IMG/VR virus record: IMGVR_UViG_2681813320_000010
Location: 1 to 5,088 of that record
Reading direction: 5' to 3' (one strand)
Length of the DNA: 5,088 nucleotides
Source: a virus
Lineage: Duplodnaviria; Heunggongvirae; Uroviricota; Caudoviricetes
Made by a program: the position numbers and the translations under genes
In this document: one piece after another, positions 1 through 5,088 of the stretch
Layout of the letters: each line of letters starts with the position of its first letter
How positions within the stretch are numbered: the first letter of the stretch is position 1
Notes under the pieces: model-generated
Told to the model about the DNA's origin: nothing
What the model saw: only the letters and a program-made list of their open reading frames with translations
The model's database searches: none

Positions 1-799
1 TTCCGGCATCCACATCACCAGGCCAGAGAGCGTAGGCCAGTTCGTCATCCAGTGTTTTCCATGTCTGCTTGTATTCGCGATGAATGGCAGCAATGACCAG
101 GCTGATTTTTCCTGTTGAATTTTCAGTGTGCTGTTGATTGACTCTGGCGCGGGCGAGATCAACAACAGACGTGTATTTTCCGGTTTCCTTGCGTTCACCT
201 TCGCGACGTTTTTTCCAGATGCGCATCTCTGCCTGAATTTCGGGCCATTTGGCACCAGGCTTACATTTATGCTTAACCCACCCGATGGCATGCAGCTTAA
301 GCTCCGGATACATGGCGTTAACTTCTGGCATTTTCATCAACGCTTCAACGATATGTCCGTCGAATGTTGCCATGTCTTCCTGCAACAATTCCTGTGCGCT
401 AATAACCATATCAACGGTGATGTTTTCACATGTGTCGAACTTAACCATGACAGCGTTCTGTACTTCAGGGGCCAGCTTGTCAAAAGTGACGTTCATCGGA
501 TCGGATTCAGTCTCAACCGGGACAAAGGAAGCAGACTCCTCATCCCAGCGGTTTTCCTGCATATATTCAGCATCCCAGGAATCGAGGGCAGGGCGGGGTA
601 TACCGGGTTTATCCTCGCAGACAAGAAATTTATAAGCGCAGTCCTGAGCAGCCGGATAATGTTCCAGGAATTGCCAGTGAAATTTTGCGCGGGCGCGACG
701 TTCATCACCGGCTTCAATGGCAGTGGCTACAGCGACGGCACCTTCTTCCTTTATTGCCTGTTCGTCCGGAATGGCGGCGCAAATAAAGACTTTACTCAT
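1..799 (-). CDS. Hypothetical prophage early-region protein, N-terminal 266 codons (3-prime end lies beyond the window start)
   Basis: Minus-strand frame is open from ATG at 799-797 to the window edge (manual translation, begins MSKVFICAAIPDEQAIKEEGAVAVATAIEAGDERRARAKFHWQF). Composition is acidic and protein-like. GAGGT Shine-Dalgarno lies 8 nt upstream. The track ORF 128..859 (+) is its Phe/Cys/His-rich antisense shadow. Function not recognised; position suggests a recombination or early-left module gene, which is positional inference only. Confidence 0.6.
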   Translation of the reverse strand, partial: MSKVFICAAIPDEQAIKEEGAVAVATAIEAGDERRARAKFHWQFLEHYPAAQDCAYKFLVCEDKPGIPRPALDSWDAEYMQENRWDEESASFVPVETESDPMNVTFDKLAPEVQNAVMVKFDTCENITVDMVISAQELLQEDMATFDGHIVEALMKMPEVNAMYPELKLHAIGWVKHKCKPGAKWPEIQAEMRIWKKRREGERKETGKYTSVVDLARARVNQQHTENSTGKISLVIAAIHREYKQTWKTLDDELAYALWPGDVDAG

Positions 800-891
800 T
801 TTGTTTTACCTCATTACAGATTTAAGGGTGAACAAATCCCTGCCATTGCTGGCATATAAGAATGAAACCGGATATTTATTACGGAACTGTT

Positions 892-1083
892 TTAAAGACC
901 TGCCGGGATTTCGTTATTATCCTGGTGAATAACTTTATCGACCGGGTAACAGTTACCGGGAATTTTCTGTTCTGCTGCGGCAGCCATGCATTCTTTCATT
1001 GAGTTGTACATGCCGGTGATTGCATCAAGCGACTCACCAGTATTGAGATATACAGTCAGAATGAGTATGAATAATGTGTTCAT
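892..1083 (-). CDS. Small hypothetical protein (63 aa) with hydrophobic N-terminal segment, candidate small membrane protein
   Basis: ATG at 1083-1081 preceded by GGAGAG Shine-Dalgarno (5-nt spacing); the track ORF 892..1089 starts 2 codons earlier at GTG. Product MNTLFILILTVYLNTGES... has a hydrophobic stretch at the N-terminus. Its start overlaps the stop of the upstream gene in an ATGA junction. Stop TAA at 894-892. Confidence 0.45.
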   Translation of the reverse strand: MNTLFILILTVYLNTGESLDAITGMYNSMKECMAAAAEQKIPGNCYPVDKVIHQDNNEIPAGL

Positions 1084-1268
1084 CGCCACTCTCCGAAAAT
1101 ACCGAGTTTAAGAAGGGCAATTCTGGAGAGTATGGAATTGTCATTCAGCAGGTAGGGTTCATATTTTCTCATATTGATTGCATCCTCGGTGAAATCCCTG
1201 TTACTGAGCAGAACACCAATATTAAAGCACCCGTCAGACGTATTAACGTTTGGTAGTGACGTTTCCAT
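1080..1268 (-). CDS. Small hypothetical protein (62 aa), translationally coupled to the downstream small membrane protein gene
   Basis: ATG at 1268-1266 with GAGGA Shine-Dalgarno 7 nt upstream. The longer track ORF 1080..1373 starts at GTG with no ribosome-binding site and runs through the inverted repeat, so the shorter start is preferred. Stop TGA overlaps the next ATG (ATGA). Confidence 0.4.
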   Translation of the reverse strand: METSLPNVNTSDGCFNIGVLLSNRDFTEDAINMRKYEPYLLNDNSILSRIALLKLGIFGEWR

Positions 1269-1285
1269 TATCGCGTCCTCAACAA

Positions 1286-1433
1286 TGAATTTTGTGATGC
1301 GGTGCCTGGTGCCTCCAGGTGACGTTAACCAGTTAACAATTAACGCCGGATACAGAGAATCCACCCATAACACTGTTTTTGGTTTTAACTGTTCCGCGTG
1401 CGCTCAGCCGCATTCACCACATCACAAAATTCA
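1286..1433. repeat. 19-bp imperfect inverted repeat pair bracketing a 110-bp spacer
   Basis: 1286-1304 TGAATTTTGTGATGCGGTG; 1415-1433 CACCACATCACAAAATTCA, the reverse complement with 1 mismatch (18/19). The spacer 1305-1414 holds a GGTGCCT tandem direct repeat (1301-1314), a CCTGG/CCAGG palindrome and three closely spaced TTAAC motifs (1325-1344). The left arm ends 18 nt upstream of the ATG at 1268. Confidence 0.6.
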
Positions 1434-1827
1434 CTTTAAAAAGGGCGGCAGAGCAGTCACGGAGTAAAACTGATACCGCCAAAAGTCACCAGAAAATTGA
1501 TAACAGAGGGCGTTGCAGCGGAGTTGTCACTTAAGCGTATGGTCAACCTGACAACCCGGTGTCCTCAACGGGGGAAGGAATAACCCCGCCATACTTACCG
1601 CCGCGCCATTTCGCGGAGTGCCACAACCGGAAGCGCACGGTCGAACTAAATTTAACGACACCGTACAGAGAGACCAATTTCGCCGTGCGCTTTCGCGTTA
1701 TGCCCTGACTTTTCAGGGACATATCCTTTCAGTAAACTGTCAGTGCCGGATGTTCACCCGTGTCCGGCGCACGCACTCCACCTGACCCGTGGAGAACTCC
1801 TTAATTACCAACCCTCAGGAGGGTGAA
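1434..1827. other. ORF-poor, GC-richer structured intergenic region between the plus-strand 92-aa gene and the minus-strand small-gene operon
   Basis: No ORF of 60 codons or more in any frame across about 1468-1788. By hand count about 57% GC over 1541-1700, against AT-rich flanking small genes. Hairpins: CCGCG-ccattt-CGCGG (about 1600-1616), CCCTGA-cttt-TCAGGG (1703-1718), GCCGGA-12nt-TCCGGC (about 1744-1767). GTGCGC/GCGCAC recurs four times. Weak candidate plus-strand promoter: -35 TTTTCA at 1710-1715, -10 TAAACT at 1733-1738. Confidence 0.4.
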
Positions 1828-2106
1828 ATGGATAAAAAGCAAATTGAGGCCCTGCAATCTATTATTGAAAAACAAGATGAAGCTATCAGGATTCTTTCAT
1901 ATCGCACTGATATGATACTAAATATGCTTTCTGCATTAACGGCTGCGCTTGGTGGTACAAAAACAAACGTATACCGCGAAGTTGTTATTCAACAGATAGA
2001 TAAATTTGAAAAAACCATACCAGGTATTAATGCTCATCTTGCAGAACAAGAGAAAGACCATGCTCTTATGGCAATTTCTTCAGTAGCTCTCCCGAAAGTT
2101 GAGTAG
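1828..2106 (+). CDS. Hypothetical 92-aa coiled-coil-like protein, transcribed opposite to the surrounding early-left genes
   Basis: ATG at 1828 preceded by strong AGGAGGG Shine-Dalgarno (1817-1823); the track ORF begins upstream at GTG 1789 with no ribosome-binding site. Product MDKKQIEALQSIIEKQDEAIRILSYRTDMILNMLSALTAALGG... is balanced and heptad-like. Stop TAG at 2104-2106. The 3-prime 41 nt overlap the convergent 133-aa gene. Confidence 0.5.
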   Translation: MDKKQIEALQSIIEKQDEAIRILSYRTDMILNMLSALTAALGGTKTNVYREVVIQQIDKFEKTIPGINAHLAEQEKDHALMAISSVALPKVE

Positions 2107-2467
2107 TTTTAATTGTTGTTTTGAAATAATCACTGCTTTCACATTTGAGTGATTTCATGGCAATCCAAATGCGGGCCTCTGTGCCTGCATTTGGTTCCAG
2201 TTGCTGTAGACGTTTTGCGTCTTCCAAAAGTAAGGCGATAATGTGTTTCAGCTTCTCATCATTTGCTTGATTCTTGTTTTCAGGCGAATTCTGTCCGCCG
2301 AATAGGCGCTTCTCTTCATACAGACCTATAAAGGCACGACGCACGTTACCGGATATAGTATCGATGGTTTCCTTTTCTACAGTACTCAGGTCAAGAGTCG
2401 CCAGTTGAGAGCGAACCACATTCGCTGCCATTTCCTGGAATGGCATTGGTAAATCTTTAAATTCCAT
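2066..2467 (-). CDS. Hypothetical early-left protein (133 aa)
   Basis: ATG at 2467-2465 with GAGG Shine-Dalgarno 6 nt upstream, 22 nt after the stop of the upstream 72-aa gene (operon-like). Protein-like composition (MEFKDLPMPFQEMAANVVRSQLATLDLSTVEKETIDTISG...). No family recognised. The last 13 codons overlap the plus-strand gene, so the true 3-prime end is uncertain. Confidence 0.5.
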   Translation of the reverse strand: MEFKDLPMPFQEMAANVVRSQLATLDLSTVEKETIDTISGNVRRAFIGLYEEKRLFGGQNSPENKNQANDEKLKHIIALLLEDAKRLQQLEPNAGTEARIWIAMKSLKCESSDYFKTTIKTTQLSGELLKKLP

Positions 2468-2489
2468 TATTAGCCTCGTTGGTTAGCTA

Positions 2490-2708
2490 TTAACGTGGGT
2501 ATGTAACCATTCTGGCAATGCTTAATGCCGCTGCTTTTTCCAGCCTGGTGATATCCTGCTCCAGAGCGGACAGATTTTCAGCCTGCTTAGTCCTGGCTTC
2601 ATTGGCCCATTTCAGATCCTGCGCTGCATTAATTTTCTGGCGCATCCACTCATAAAGTTCATCATCGGTATAGTCTGGCGCGATGATGACGGGTTCTCGT
2701 TTCTGCAT
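2490..2708 (-). CDS. Hypothetical small early-left protein (72 aa), predicted helical/coiled-coil
   Basis: ATG at 2708-2706 with GAGGAA Shine-Dalgarno 6 nt upstream; stop TAA at 2492-2490. Product MQKREPVIIAPDYTDDELYEWMRQKINAAQDLKWANEARTKQAENLSALEQDITRLEKAAALSIARMVTYPR is charged and helix-prone. No family recognised. Confidence 0.5.
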   Translation of the reverse strand: MQKREPVIIAPDYTDDELYEWMRQKINAAQDLKWANEARTKQAENLSALEQDITRLEKAAALSIARMVTYPR

Positions 2709-2737
2709 ACTGATTCCTCGCGGTGCTGTTTCGCTTA

Positions 2738-2866
2738 TCAGCCGTTAGATTTTGCCGAACTGGAAAGCGCCTGTTTAAATTCGTTGAAGCTGAGAGCTTC
2801 TTCGCCTTCGGCAAGACCTTCGAAGTATTCTTCGTAAGCCTTTTCCATGATTGTGTCGAAATCCAT
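2738..2866 (-). CDS. Small acidic hypothetical protein (42 aa), absent from the ORF track because it is short
   Basis: Manual translation from ATG 2866-2864 to TGA 2740-2738: MDFDTIMEKAYEEYFEGLAEGEEALSFNEFKQALSSSAKSNG. AGGTGA Shine-Dalgarno-like sequence upstream; ATG lies 1 nt after the stop of the upstream 51-aa ORF. The overlapping track ORFs 2662..2871 (-) and 2723..2920 (+) have basic or antisense-like low-complexity products and are considered shadows. Resembles the small Rac-prophage ydaF/ydaG-type genes by size and position, from memory only. Confidence 0.4.
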   Translation of the reverse strand: MDFDTIMEKAYEEYFEGLAEGEEALSFNEFKQALSSSAKSNG

Positions 2867-2867
2867 A

Positions 2868-3023
2868 TCACTCACCTGAGTTTCTTTCCAGCCAGCGACG
2901 GGCACCATTTTCGGTTTTAAACGTTTTGCTTTTGGTATACGTCATCGCGGTGAACGTACCGTCCTGGTTGGGGAACACGCCACATACCAGAGATTCGCTG
3001 TTGCCAAGATCGATAGTATCCAT
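2868..3023 (-). CDS. Small hypothetical protein (51 aa); first gene after the candidate OL/pL region (alternative upstream start at 3104 would give 78 aa)
   Basis: ATG at 3023-3021 with GAGGT Shine-Dalgarno 4 nt upstream: MDTIDLGNSESLVCGVFPNQDGTFTAMTYTKSKTFKTENGARRWLERNSGE; stop TGA 2870-2868. The track ORF extends to ATG 3104 with an N-rich hydrophobic extension of doubtful coding character. Start choice is unresolved. Confidence 0.45.
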   Translation of the reverse strand: MDTIDLGNSESLVCGVFPNQDGTFTAMTYTKSKTFKTENGARRWLERNSGE

Positions 3024-3199
3024 GCTGACCTCATTTCCCCTTAACGCCGGGGTAGCGGAACAAAAACCTGCTGCATAGTTATTAAAGTTGAACCCTGCCG
3101 TCATGTTCTTACGCCTCGGGCTGGCTACTTAACCCCTGACCACTGCCGGGTAACTCGAAGTATTGCCTGGCGTTCTGTGGGGCGGGGTGGGTTGATGAA

Positions 3200-3250
3200 T
3201 GAACAATACCACTACTATTTAATTATGTAAATAGCAGTGCTATTATCGTG
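3200..3250 (-). promoter_or_regulatory. Candidate OL/pL-like operator-promoter region for the early-left operon
   Basis: Overlapping palindromes: CTATTTA-ATTATG-TAAATAG (3215-3234) and AAATAG-CAGTG-CTATTA (3229-3245), plus a degenerate copy CAATAC-CACTA-CTATTT (3204-3220); same half-site family as the OR region. Candidate minus-strand promoter: -35 TTTACA (3229-3224), 17-nt spacer, -10 TATTGT (3206-3201). Lies between the terminator of the repressor operon and the first early-left gene. Confidence 0.4.
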
Positions 3251-3252
3251 GC

Positions 3253-3278
3253 AAGAAAAAAACCACCCGAAGGTGGTT
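3253..3278 (-). terminator. Rho-independent terminator of the repressor-antitoxin-toxin operon
   Basis: On the minus strand: 7-bp stem AACCACC/GGTGGTT with a UUCG tetraloop (plus 3261-3278), followed by a U-run (plus 3256-3260 AAAAA; transcript GGUGGUUUUUUUCUU). Begins 15 nt downstream of the toxin stop codon (3295-3293). Confidence 0.7.
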
Positions 3279-3292
3279 GTTGACAGGAAGGA

Positions 3293-3583
3293 TTAACAGG
3301 TTTTGTTTGGATACTGTCTTCGTGAGTGAACTACATTTACGATCTCGATGTTAGATGCTGTTACTCGGTAAAGTATTATGTAGTTAGGATGAGTCACTAT
3401 CTCACGAAGACTTGGAACTCTTTCGCTCGGTGGGTACAGATAAGGGTGTTCAGTAAGTGACAAAACTGATGTTTCAATGCGTATTTTTAGTCTACGTGCA
3501 GCGGGAGGGTTTTCCTTAGCAATATAGGCTACGATCTGACGTAAATCATCACGTGCAGAAGGTAGCCATAAAATGGGCAGCAT
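3293..3583 (-). CDS. parE: Type II toxin, ParE/RelE superfamily (ParE-like), 96 aa
   Basis: Product MLPILWLPSARDDLRQIVAYIAKENPPAARRLKIRIETSVLSLTEHPYLYPPSERVPSLREIVTHPNYIILYRVTASNIEIVNVVHSRRQYP shows the ParE pattern: W-x-x-x-A-x-x-DL-x-x-I-x-x-YIA, an R-x-L/I-E region, R-E/L-V/I then YRV then I-x-I-x-x-V-x-H, and a terminal RQ-x-P. ATG overlaps the upstream antitoxin stop by 1 nt (TAATG). Family assignment is from memory of ParE sequences; parE is a family-level symbol only. Confidence 0.8.
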   Translation of the reverse strand: MLPILWLPSARDDLRQIVAYIAKENPPAARRLKIRIETSVLSLTEHPYLYPPSERVPSLREIVTHPNYIILYRVTASNIEIVNVVHSRRQYPNKTC

Positions 3584-3774
3584 TACTCACTCCTGTTCGT
3601 TGCAGCTAATTGAGCAATAAGGTTTTCCATTTCAGCCATTACTTCGTCATGTGGAATTGCAGGACGGGGATCTGAGAGGCTTGCTGCCACTTTGGTTCGC
3701 AACCATTCGTTATAGCTGTTTTCTTGTTCGACTGTTTCAAATTCAGAAATTATCGGGGAAAGGGCTGTACTCAT
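3583..3774 (-). CDS. paaA: Small antitoxin (63 aa) paired with the ParE-like toxin; resembles PaaA-type antitoxins of three-component ParE systems
   Basis: ATG at 3774-3772 with GGAGG Shine-Dalgarno 7 nt upstream, 17 nt after the repressor stop; stop overlaps the toxin start. Product MSTALSPIISEFETVEQENSYNEWLRTKVAASLSDPRPAIPHDEVMAEMENLIAQLAATNRSE is small, acidic and likely disordered, typical of type II antitoxins. The PaaA-like call rests on gene order and recollection, not a search; paaA is a family-level symbol only. Confidence 0.7.
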   Translation of the reverse strand: MSTALSPIISEFETVEQENSYNEWLRTKVAASLSDPRPAIPHDEVMAEMENLIAQLAATNRSE

Positions 3775-3791
3775 GTTTTTACCTCCTCAGA

Positions 3792-4292
3792 TTAGGCGCG
3801 ACGACCCTTTTGCGCAGCTAGCCATCGCGCAACGATTTCTTCAATTGATTCTTTTTTCTCCTTCATTTCCTTAAGCATTTTCTCTTTATCTTCTTTGGGG
3901 AAAGCCCTGAACGTCTGGAGCAAATCCCGCTCCATGGGGTCTATATTAAACGGAAGTTCGTTTTCCGATTGTTCCATATCTGCAGATATAGTGACAACAT
4001 TGTCCTCCCCAGATTCTTGGGGATACATCCTTACAATTTGTAACAACTCGGCCATATCTGGTCTGATTGACTCGGGAGGAACTTGCAGCAACCCTGCGAA
4101 CTTGATAACAGCCTCAAGATTTAAAGGTGTCTGACCATTTAGATAATGGCTTACAGCTCCCTGTGTCGAAAATCCCAGAATTTCTGCCGCACGCTCTTGG
4201 GTTAACCCTAGTTGATTTTTTTTCGCCGTCCAGATTTCTTTCAGTCTCTGGGCGGCTTGCAGGTCGATCTCTGACAGGGATTTTCTTTTCAT
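3792..4292 (-). CDS. paaR: HTH (XRE/Cro-CI family) transcriptional repressor, 166 aa; CI analogue and first gene of the repressor-antitoxin-toxin operon
   Basis: N-terminal helix-turn-helix signature LTQERAAEILGFSTQGAVSHYLNGQTP. C-terminal region is Lys/Glu-rich with no recognisable LexA/S24-type autocleavage motif. Divergent from the Cro-like gene across an operator-rich 107-bp region. AAGG ribosome-binding site almost abuts the ATG, so the leader is poor. paaR is assigned by operon architecture, moderately confident. Confidence 0.8.
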   Translation of the reverse strand: MKRKSLSEIDLQAAQRLKEIWTAKKNQLGLTQERAAEILGFSTQGAVSHYLNGQTPLNLEAVIKFAGLLQVPPESIRPDMAELLQIVRMYPQESGEDNVVTISADMEQSENELPFNIDPMERDLLQTFRAFPKEDKEKMLKEMKEKKESIEEIVARWLAAQKGRRA

Positions 4293-4399
4293 ACCTTCAA
4301 TTCTAATAAGATTATTAATCTCTTTGAAATAGTGATGCTATTTACTTTTAAAAATAACAATGCTATTAATGATCGTGATGACATCACATGAGGTGAACA
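4293..4399. promoter_or_regulatory. Candidate OR-like divergent operator-promoter region between repressor and Cro-like gene
   Basis: Two 17-bp palindromic sites spaced 25 bp centre to centre: AAATAG-TGATG-CTATTT (4327-4343) and AAATAA-CAATG-CTATTA (4352-4368). A separate perfect palindrome GTGATG-a-CATCAC (4375-4387) sits just before the GAGGTG Shine-Dalgarno of the Cro-like gene. Candidate rightward promoter: -35 TTTACT (4341-4346), -10 TATTAA (4364-4369), overlapping the operators. Confidence 0.55.
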
Positions 4400-4675
4400 A
4401 TGAATCTTGGAGAATATTTGCATCATTCCGGTATAACTCAGAAGCATTTTGCTGAAATTGTTGGGGTAACCCAAGGGATGGTAAGCCATGTCATTACCGG
4501 ACGGGCGAAACTTACGGGGAAAAAAATTTTACGCTGGTGCGAAGCAACAGGCTGGATAGTAACTCCGCACGAGATTGATGGCAGTACTTATCCCAACCCA
4601 ACCGACGGCTTACCTGTCGAGTATCAGGCTAACACACAACCAGAGGCGGGGGTGATTCATGAAAATCAAGCATGA
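4400..4675 (+). CDS. ydaS: Cro-like HTH DNA-binding protein, YdaS-type (91 aa)
   Basis: ATG at 4400 with GAGGTG Shine-Dalgarno 4 nt upstream. HTH signature ITQKHFAEIVGVTQGMVSHVITG. Divergent from the repressor and followed by an overlapping YdaT-like gene, the arrangement of the Rac-type ydaS-ydaT pair. Assignment from motif and synteny. Confidence 0.75.
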   Translation: MNLGEYLHHSGITQKHFAEIVGVTQGMVSHVITGRAKLTGKKILRWCEATGWIVTPHEIDGSTYPNPTDGLPVEYQANTQPEAGVIHENQA

Positions 4676-5084
4676 ACACATCCGCATGGCAATGAATGCC
4701 TGGGCGCATCCGGACGGCGAAAAAGTACCGGCTGCGAAAATTACCAAAGCGTATTTCGAGCTGGGAATGACGTTCCCGGAACTGTATGACGACAGCCATC
4801 CGGAAGCCCTGGCCCGTAATACCCAGAAAATTTTCCGTTGGCTGGATAAAGACACCCCTGATGCTGTTGAAAAAATGCAGGCTCTGTTACCGGCGATCGA
4901 AAAGGCGATGCCGCCTTTGCTGGTGGCCCGTATGCGCAGCCACAGTTCTGAATATTACCGTGAGATCGTCGAACGGAGGGATCGGCTGGTGAAGGATGTC
5001 GATGATTTTGTTGCGTCAGCGGTTGTTTTGTATGACCAGATGAATCGCGGCGGCCCGGCAGGGAATGCTGTGGTGATGCACTAA
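4659..5084 (+). CDS. ydaT: YdaT-like protein (141 aa), CII analogue of Rac-type immunity regions
   Basis: Begins MKIKHEHI, which I recall as the N-terminus of Rac-prophage YdaT. Overlaps the 3-prime end of the Cro-like gene by 17 nt in another frame. G-rich ribosome-binding site (GGGGGTG) upstream. Stop TAA 5082-5084. Assignment from recollection and synteny. Confidence 0.75.
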   Translation: MKIKHEHIRMAMNAWAHPDGEKVPAAKITKAYFELGMTFPELYDDSHPEALARNTQKIFRWLDKDTPDAVEKMQALLPAIEKAMPPLLVARMRSHSSEYYREIVERRDRLVKDVDDFVASAVVLYDQMNRGGPAGNAVVMH

Positions 5085-5088
5085 AAGC

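Follow-up and report, generated by a model that had tools for sequence, protein, structure and literature searches.

Rousset et al. reportedly described, in 2022, hotspots at which P2-like prophages and P4-like satellites carry anti-phage genes. Genes that lie antisense to lytic operons are regarded as moron loci with promoters of their own and are usually expressed in the lysogen (PMC7067206). In phage P22, the early-left transcript gives rise to an antisense RNA, sas, which switches the translation of sieB in the sieB/esc/sas locus (cited in PMC7067206). Here we report on a gene encoding 92 amino acids (aa) in a 5,088-nt stretch of viral DNA (positions 1 to 5,088 of IMG/VR record IMGVR_UViG_2681813320_000010), the whole of which is called the window below. 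The open reading frames (ORFs) and the Pfam, PHROGs, and Rfam matches identify the window as belonging to a Qin/dicB-type lambdoid prophage of Escherichia coli, of which it covers the immunity and early-left region, and the gene runs on the plus strand against the leftward early operon. An original prediction, made from the sequence alone, regarded it as a counter-oriented gene in the sieB position that could encode an unrecognised exclusion or regulatory protein, with antisense interference as a second layer. Our analysis establishes a protein-coding gene under purifying selection, which shares a present-or-absent cassette with a convergent gene and represents one of several families behind the same structured leader. 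We favour, at roughly even confidence, the view that it is an autonomous accessory ("moron") gene with expression of its own, one of the alleles of a replaceable slot, and that convergent early transcription silences it.

The gene is a positional equivalent of sieB. In the Rac prophage of E. coli K-12, sieB lies on the plus strand between the small RNA (sRNA) gene kilS and ydaF, a homologue of ydfA, and its 3' end overlaps the 3' end of ydaF. The window map matches this Rac order of kilS (minus), sieB (plus), and ydaF (minus), so the predicted position holds relative to both the sRNA and the kil/dicB genes. As with sieB in P22, lambda, and Rac, the gene is counter-oriented in the early-left operon between the repressor-side region and the kil/sRNA region, and any early-left transcript must be antisense to it. 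By geometry, transcripts heading to dicF/dicB would be fully antisense to the 92-aa gene, its leader and translation start included, and P22 sieB/esc/sas gives the proposed antisense layer a precedent in this slot (PMC7067206). However, K-12 SieB belongs to phrog_6399 (5e-70), whereas the 92-aa protein falls into another PHROG, phrog_18692, and has no Pfam match. It also has no membrane segment and about half the size of SieB, and the Rac sieB leader lacks the hairpins found here. The candidate identification of the 92-aa protein as SieB was rejected on these grounds, i.e., no homology, no membrane helices, and a different leader.

A protein-coding gene under purifying selection

The 92-aa ORF is a genuine gene that codes for a protein. 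Homologues with 71–74% identity occur in Salmonella (loci L124–L126) and on contig L129, and selection was computed over the 78 codons that are free of overlap with the minus-strand ORF. The ratio of nonsynonymous to synonymous substitution rates (dN/dS) was 0.16–0.23 for the window against Salmonella L124 and against L129, and 0.08 for L124 against L129; substitutions fell 19/9/29 on the three codon positions. The region has a G+C content of 36%, and after shuffling of the ORF the frame was still open in only 12 of 20,000 trials. The ribosome-binding site is the sole GGAGG of the window ahead of a plus-strand start in this region, and in other prophages the same site opens four unrelated ORF families, for which the joint chance of open frames is ~1e-10. 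Approximately 92% of the IMG/VR copies are intact, and the length is kept in homologues down to 21% identity. The G+C content falls to 38% within the plus-strand gene vs 47–56% in the flanks. That the frame is open by chance on the antisense strand, and that the minus-strand transcript alone matters, is refuted by the selection, shuffle, shared-start, and length data and vanishingly improbable, even though the gene has no functional annotation, the single point in favour of that reading. The ORF behind a strong AGGAGGG, its counter-orientation, and its 41-nt convergent overlap with the 133-aa gene, all read from the letters in the original prediction, were borne out. Both genes are annotated as "hypothetical protein" in RefSeq, within an identical 701-bp stretch of another strain.

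The product is predicted to be soluble and helical, as had been proposed. The maximum 19-residue Kyte-Doolittle hydropathy is 0.93, well under the membrane-helix level, with no membrane segment. An AlphaFold2 model from a 12-sequence alignment (pLDDT 83, pTM 0.67) places helices at residues 3–43, 49–59, and 69–85. Structure prediction had been suggested for both proteins, and it succeeded for this one but not for the 133-aa protein (pLDDT 58.5, confident for residues 1–55 only), whose model was left out of the fold search because of this low score. The 92-aa protein gave no significant fold match in PDB or BFVD, no Pfam family at E ≤ 1, no NCBIfam or PADLOC family, and no tblastn match in deposited phage genomes. 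Searched with a profile, 1.8 billion representative proteins yielded only 21 clusters at 50% identity, none annotated and all from enterobacterial prophages. The conserved positions of the family include R26, D28, K45, R50, and the motif E75-K76-x-H78.

Relatives of the 92-aa gene keep its genomic setting. Homologues at 21–47% identity adjoin the early operon of 186-like prophages, and those at 44–47% identity converge there on a CII-like helix-turn-helix (HTH) protein; the overlap is 41 nt in Salmonella, L129, and 186-like prophages alike. Other remote members, found only by profile search, stand alone beside a cI-type repressor without an overlapping partner (L229 and L231). All homologues sit against an early operon or beside a repressor, in lambdoid and 186-like prophages. 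On the metagenomic lambdoid contig L229, a 16-nt direct repeat, TGTTCTTGCCGTTGTG, lies on either side of a remote family member (216–238 and 685–708), which hints at site-specific or repeat-mediated insertion.

A replaceable slot behind one leader

The 92-aa and 133-aa genes form a cassette that is either present or absent between ydfC and the dicF precursor. It extends from exactly the plus-strand ribosome-binding site to two bases past the minus-strand start codon, and other genomes hold backbones covering 87% of the window, which equals the window minus the cassette. Empty sites include K-12 Qin, L122, and ~60 of the 179 leader-bearing loci. In empty sites (e.g., L122 2526–2556) the arms of the flanking imperfect inverted repeat pair as a hairpin with an 8–9-nt loop, and the cassette occupies this loop. 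At the cassette borders we found no direct repeats and no transposon or mobile-element ends, only this inverted repeat. The leader, with both hairpins, is present in 3,315 of 5,426 complete E. coli genomes (61%), and the allele-A cassette in 124.

Behind one ribosome-binding site and start position there are at least four unrelated ORF families of 63–92 aa, or no ORF at all. Purifying selection acts on the other alleles as well, with dN/dS values of 0.18 (C), 0.26 (E vs F), ~0.3 (B), and 0.4 (D). Each allele falls into its own PHROG family of unknown function. Searches of Pfam, NCBIfam, PADLOC, and PHROGs with the four other alleles and both window proteins returned nothing beyond such families, and PADLOC gave no significant match for the five plus-strand alleles or the 133-aa protein.

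The reported hotspots of P2-like prophages and P4-like satellites are the closest analogy for the variability of this slot. Conserved flanks, AT-rich cargo swapped as whole genes, and the coexistence of empty and occupied states are common to both, and the locus has the signature of a hotspot in its conserved flanks, its unrelated alternative cargoes (alleles A–F), and its ~60 empty sites among 179. However, PADLOC recognised no defence system among the cargo. The slot differs from the P2 and P4 hotspots in lying inside an early lytic operon on the opposite strand, in carrying a single ORF of 63–92 aa instead of a multi-gene system, in having no cargo that matches a PADLOC defence model, and in reusing one structured leader and ribosome-binding site for every cargo. 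Our literature search on the leader sequence, the RefSeq accessions, and kilS/sieB work at this slot found nothing.

An exact copy of the enterobacterial prophage leader was also seen in two records with non-enterobacterial labels, L130 (titled Chryseobacterium sp. 18061) and L134 (a Collinsella metagenome-assembled genome), which are likely mislabelled or contaminated. Behind the leader of L130 come a short ORF and, after it, a 156-aa protein with two hydrophobic helices. The latter was considered as a SieB homologue and rejected, as it belongs to phrog_6315 and not to SieB.

Structured leader RNA and putative promoter

The leader is a conserved RNA structure. Across 19 distinct leaders from lambdoid, Salmonella, and 186-like contexts, pairing was found in 91% of cells vs 35–51% when the partners were slid; four pairs change on both sides, and none of 500 shuffles reached the observed covariation score. 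Every close or intermediate homologue examined carries the two hairpins and the stem that sequesters the ribosome-binding site. Hairpin 1, seen in all these contexts including the 186-like prophages, combines an invariant 6-bp GC stem with three further pairs (U.G, G.U, and C-G/U.G), all of them standard in plus-strand RNA only, suggesting that the leader works as a plus-strand transcript. Three pairs of hairpin 2 are compensated on both sides, as in CTCCAC/GTGGAG, CCCGAC/GTCGGG, CCCAAC/GTTGGG, and ACCACACG/CGTGTTGGT. In the sequestering stem, the pair beside CUCC/GGAG is U-A in 13 sequences and A-U in 6, so that CUCCU/AGGAG alternates with a 6-bp CUCCAU/AUGGAG, which is predicted outright in Salmonella L124 and the 186-like L224; in L227, this UGGAG is paired instead with an alternative copy of CUCCA that lies upstream. 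Rfam holds no family for the leader. We also considered the hairpins as elements of the minus-strand DicF precursor only, a reading rejected because they accompany the plus-strand gene into 186-like prophages and hairpin 1 has plus-only pairs.

A sigma-70 promoter may lie just upstream of the leader. In 8 of 13 diverse contexts, some of them otherwise unrelated in sequence, a −10-like hexamer (A2, T6; at least 4/6 matches) ends 4–10 nt upstream of hairpin 1, often after TGn; in a ninth, the hexamer matches 3/6 and lies at 6 nt. From such an element, transcription is predicted to start at the foot of hairpin 1, at ~1744–1746.

Downstream of the gene, the plus-strand mRNA could be ended or stabilised by a 12-bp hairpin (z = −3.4) with a predicted energy of −25 kcal/mol on the plus strand vs −19.6 on the minus strand. 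Salmonella keeps it through wobble pairing that is possible only on the plus strand, and it is lost in X-module genes (see below) without an A-type plus-strand gene. Terminator-like hairpins also lie 3' of the gene in L227 and L229. The earlier statement that there is no obvious terminator stands for consensus elements, none of which was found by the scan, but overlooks this non-canonical hairpin. An mRNA ending there would be ~450 nt long and would cover, in antisense, approximately the 3'-terminal 45 codons of the 133-aa gene. The near-perfect inverted repeat that forms this hairpin encodes PNAG-TE-ARIW, a highly conserved peptide of the X module, and where relatives differ in nucleotides, it is the plus-strand hairpin, not that of the coding strand, which is kept.

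The 133-aa gene and the question of pairing

The 133-aa protein is a mosaic of small helical modules, namely N (residues 1–55, with two alleles), X (~72–105, ELKHIIALLLEDAKRLQQLEPNAGTEARIWIA; ELKH...ARIWIA), and a ~27-aa tail that recurs in the proteins partnering the plus-strand gene in other types of phage. In its wider family (L002, L026, L123, L195, and L159), blocks of 30–70 aa (N, X, Y, Z, and W) recombine at short conserved linkers, e.g., KETID..NVR.AF.GLY, and the X module is found as a free-standing protein of 63–71 aa, too.

The 92-aa and 133-aa genes are not an obligate pair, and the autonomy of the 92-aa gene is established by the distribution of the two genes across genomes. Alleles C and E have a common minus-strand body with different plus-strand genes, as do B and D, and minus-strand genes of the Z type lack a plus-strand gene in L131, L145, and L171. 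The mobile unit accordingly consists of the leader and the ORF together with a short 3' flank, into which any upstream early gene reads.

We weighed a functional pair, akin to toxin and antidote or regulator and target, in which the 92-aa protein binds the tail of the early protein and a leaky or incoming early protein is neutralised in the lysogen. The last 23–27 residues (..DY...I.P..LSEELL..C*) are inherited with the plus-strand gene on different bodies, i.e., N plus X in E. coli, X alone in Salmonella, and the CII-like HTH protein in 186-like prophages, the last having only these residues in common with the 133-aa protein. The reading frame and the 41-nt overlap are always the same, the tail has a pLDDT below 50, as is often the case for partner-binding tails, and there is a weak RelB-like match (15.9 bits, far under the cutoff of 50). 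However, this conservation is expected if the tail is merely the antisense of the plus-strand 3' end and 3' untranslated region, and the swapped bodies, the Z-type genes without a plus-strand gene, and the solitary family members of L229 and L231 all argue against a pair. The resemblance to type II toxin-antitoxin systems, such as the PaaR2-PaaA2-ParE2-type set of the window, is limited to two small adjacent genes inherited together, one with a low-confidence C-terminal tail. In contrast to such operons, the two genes are convergent and not co-transcribed, have no toxin or antitoxin homology in Pfam or PADLOC, and each occurs without the other. We therefore regard a functional pair as unlikely and a protein-protein link through the shared tail as the weaker reading. 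A polymorphic toxin-immunity arrangement (constant N terminus, variable C terminus, and a co-varying small gene) was rejected, since the plus-strand gene varies independently and each gene is found alone.

Proposed expression and possible role

From the sequence we infer the following course for an autonomous accessory gene. In the lysogen, with the early-left promoter under repression, the gene's own weak promoter (~1710–1738) would make a monocistronic mRNA of ~450 nt that starts with the 5'-terminal hairpin (1745) and probably ends near 2165–2194. The second hairpin and the adjoining stem would partly sequester the ribosome-binding site, and the product, a small soluble three-helix protein, might act by binding another protein. 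When the early-left promoter fires, through induction or in a related superinfecting phage, polymerases moving toward dicF/dicB would read the gene antisense, and collision together with RNA pairing would shut it off, sparing the lytic growth of the prophage itself. Convergent, 3'-overlapping transcripts in which one strand can lower the other by pairing or collision are known from lambda oop/cII and BTP1 STnc6030 (PMC7067206). The counter-transcript here differs from these in encoding a protein under purifying selection, and the coding overlap is 41 nt as annotated, or ~135 nt if the mRNA ends at 2194. Since at least four unrelated families or nothing stand behind one leader, a role in conflict (exclusion, abortive infection, or counter-defence; between phages or between phage and host) appears the most likely, and an exclusion or defence role is plausible from the position and the hypervariability of the slot. 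The original prediction of an unrecognised exclusion or regulatory protein with an antisense layer thus keeps its accessory gene in the sieB position and its antisense geometry, but loses any link to SieB itself, for which the homology and membrane tests failed.

Several results weigh against this view. The promoter scores 8/12, under the scan threshold of 9/12, and was not called; since the match is weak, the promoter stays putative. A −10-like hexamer of at least 4/6 is out of place or lacking in 5 of the 13 contexts, and L224 and L226 have none at all. Empty sites still contain both the leader and the putative promoter, although there is no ORF to express, so the leader may have a role of its own, and a few copies of the 92-aa gene are frameshifted. 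No similarity to known exclusion or defence proteins was found in PADLOC, Pfam, NCBIfam, PDB, or BFVD. Additionally, with so small a family, the relatives of the 92-aa protein could equally be regulators or host-takeover factors.

In one alternative, the main product would be RNA, with the plus-strand promoter and leader acting as a cis-antisense or transcription-interference device that limits read-through into dicF/dicB in lysogens and the ORFs as passengers. The leader far outnumbers the A cassette in complete E. coli genomes, empty sites including K-12 Qin retain the −10-like element and both hairpins, the covariation and the plus-only wobble pairs indicate a selected plus-strand RNA, and the toxic genes dicF and dicB are subject to several layers of control (PMC10448788). 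Nonetheless, every allele tested is under purifying selection at the protein level, and the strong ribosome-binding site is kept in occupied sites. The Vanderpool laboratory, assaying the sense strand, saw no further promoters in the K-12 ydfA-dicF region (PMC10448788). An RNA as the main product thus seems rather improbable to us, but an RNA role and a protein role are not mutually exclusive. A gene that acts in lytic growth, e.g., in host takeover or anti-defence, would instead be transcribed after induction, with the counter-orientation only delaying or limiting its expression. Phage genes with such functions typically encode small, soluble, acidic helical proteins that diversify through gene replacement, and sequestration of the ribosome-binding site points to a need for some activating event before translation. 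However, an active early-left promoter reads strongly antisense to the gene and should suppress rather than activate it, the promoter scan recognised no late-type or activator-dependent promoter for it, and expression in the lysogen is the usual case for genes lying antisense to lytic operons (PMC7067206). Lytic action is hence quite unlikely, and an autonomous gene silenced by convergent transcription is preferred.

A broader proposal is more doubtful, and we offer it tentatively. The leader may be a portable expression platform, set against the early operons of lambdoid (Qin/Rac-type) and 186-like prophages, that carries swapped mini-genes of 63–92 aa and forms with them a so far undescribed hotspot of exclusion or defence factors that each consist of a single protein, with convergent transcription as the self-immunity switch and the empty sites as an antisense brake on dicF/dicB. 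If so, a slot in most E. coli genomes would host rotating, tiny uncharacterised proteins, allele B of O157:H7 included. Expressed from repressed prophages, they would be candidates for new and very small phage-exclusion or defence factors, whose built-in self-immunity would consist of convergent early transcription and a sequestered ribosome-binding site. The toxic dicF/dicB module would gain an extra layer of control, having been studied only in K-12, whose slot is empty. If the proposal is wrong, the cassette is one more pair of hypothetical prophage genes.

Operon context

The features of the window and the alleles of the slot are collected in Table 1.

Table 1. Positions of features in the window and alleles of the slot
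Feature	Position (nt)	Strand	Remarks
Exonuclease gene, start	..799	minus	
DUF1482/ydfD gene	892–1089	minus	
dicB	1080–1268	minus	
DicF sRNA	1443–1494	minus	Rfam RF00039, 75.8 bits; downstream on the same early-left transcript
DicF precursor, 13-bp stem	1628–1695 (1628–1640 / 1683–1695)	minus	Repeat search; immediately left of the plus-strand promoter region
Putative sigma-70 promoter	1710–1738	plus	TTTTCA 1710–1715, 17-nt spacer, TAAACT 1733–1738; read from the sequence
Leader hairpin 1	1745–1768	plus	GCCGGAUG...UGUCCGGC
Leader hairpin 2	1776–1794	plus	CUCCAC, 7 nt, GUGGAG
Stem sequestering the ribosome-binding site	1797–1821	plus	CUCCU 1797–1801 with AGGAG 1817–1821
Flanking imperfect inverted repeat, left arm	1801–1812		TTAATTACCAAC
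Two-gene cassette	1814–2469		656 bp; present or absent in comparison with empty prophages
Shine-Dalgarno sequence AGGAGGG	1817–1823	plus	4 nt before ATG; kept ahead of all five or six ORF alleles
92-aa gene (slot allele A)	1828–2106 (ATG 1828, TAG 2106)	plus	phrog_18692; soluble three-helix protein (predicted)
3'-to-3' overlap of 92-aa and 133-aa genes	2066–2106		41 nt
133-aa early-operon gene	2066–2467	minus	
12-bp hairpin, candidate 3' end or stabiliser of plus-strand mRNA	2165–2194	plus	59 nt past the stop; within the PNAG-TE-ARIW codons
Flanking imperfect inverted repeat, right arm	2478–2493		GTTGGTTAGCTATTAA
ydfA (DUF1391), ydfB, and ydfC homologues	2490–3104	minus	
HTH repressor, PaaA2-like antitoxin, ParE toxin	3293–4292	minus	
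YdaS/Cro-like gene and YdaT gene	right end of window	plus	
Slot allele A		plus	92 aa
Slot allele B		plus	77 aa; O157:H7 prophages
Slot allele C		plus	73 aa
Slot allele D		plus	63–69 aa
Slot alleles E and F		plus	91 aa; distant 92-aa homologues, 28% identity

The 133-aa gene is a middle gene of the early-left operon and not the last one, as had been claimed. The DicF, dicB, DUF1482/ydfD, and exonuclease genes follow it on the same strand, and in K-12 ydfABC-dicF-dicB-ydfD form a single transcript from a DicA-repressed promoter (PMC10448788). At the head of the operon, the repressor region was seen to hold a three-gene toxin-antitoxin set of the PaaR2-PaaA2-ParE2 type, with a 166-aa HTH regulator and Pfam matches to PaaA2 (1e-21) and ParE (7e-18).

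The 13-bp stem is probably the RNase III site of the DicF precursor, judging from its position, which matches the 190-nt DicF species (PMC10448788). It lies ~137 nt upstream of DicF, where RNase III makes the 5' end of that species in K-12. One half of the stem (GTGCGCTTTCG) is also kept upstream of the plus-strand gene in Rac, Salmonella, and 186-like prophages. On the minus strand (1236–1445), an STnc100 match below the Rfam threshold (38.4 bits against a gathering score of 47) covers the spacer between DicF and dicB together with the beginning of dicB. E. coli strain NCCP15648 (L001 4627–5594), whose cassette is identical (NZ_CP009050 2304582–2305282), has a Rha-family regulator gene inserted beside dicB and a truncated second copy of dicB; the window is without this insertion. 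In the 186/P4-like element L224, a C4-type antisense RNA (Rfam, 77 bits) lies on the minus strand at 2526–2613, ~900 nt left of the 92-aa homologue, and is thus a further sRNA immediately beyond the plus-strand gene, as with dicF and kilS.

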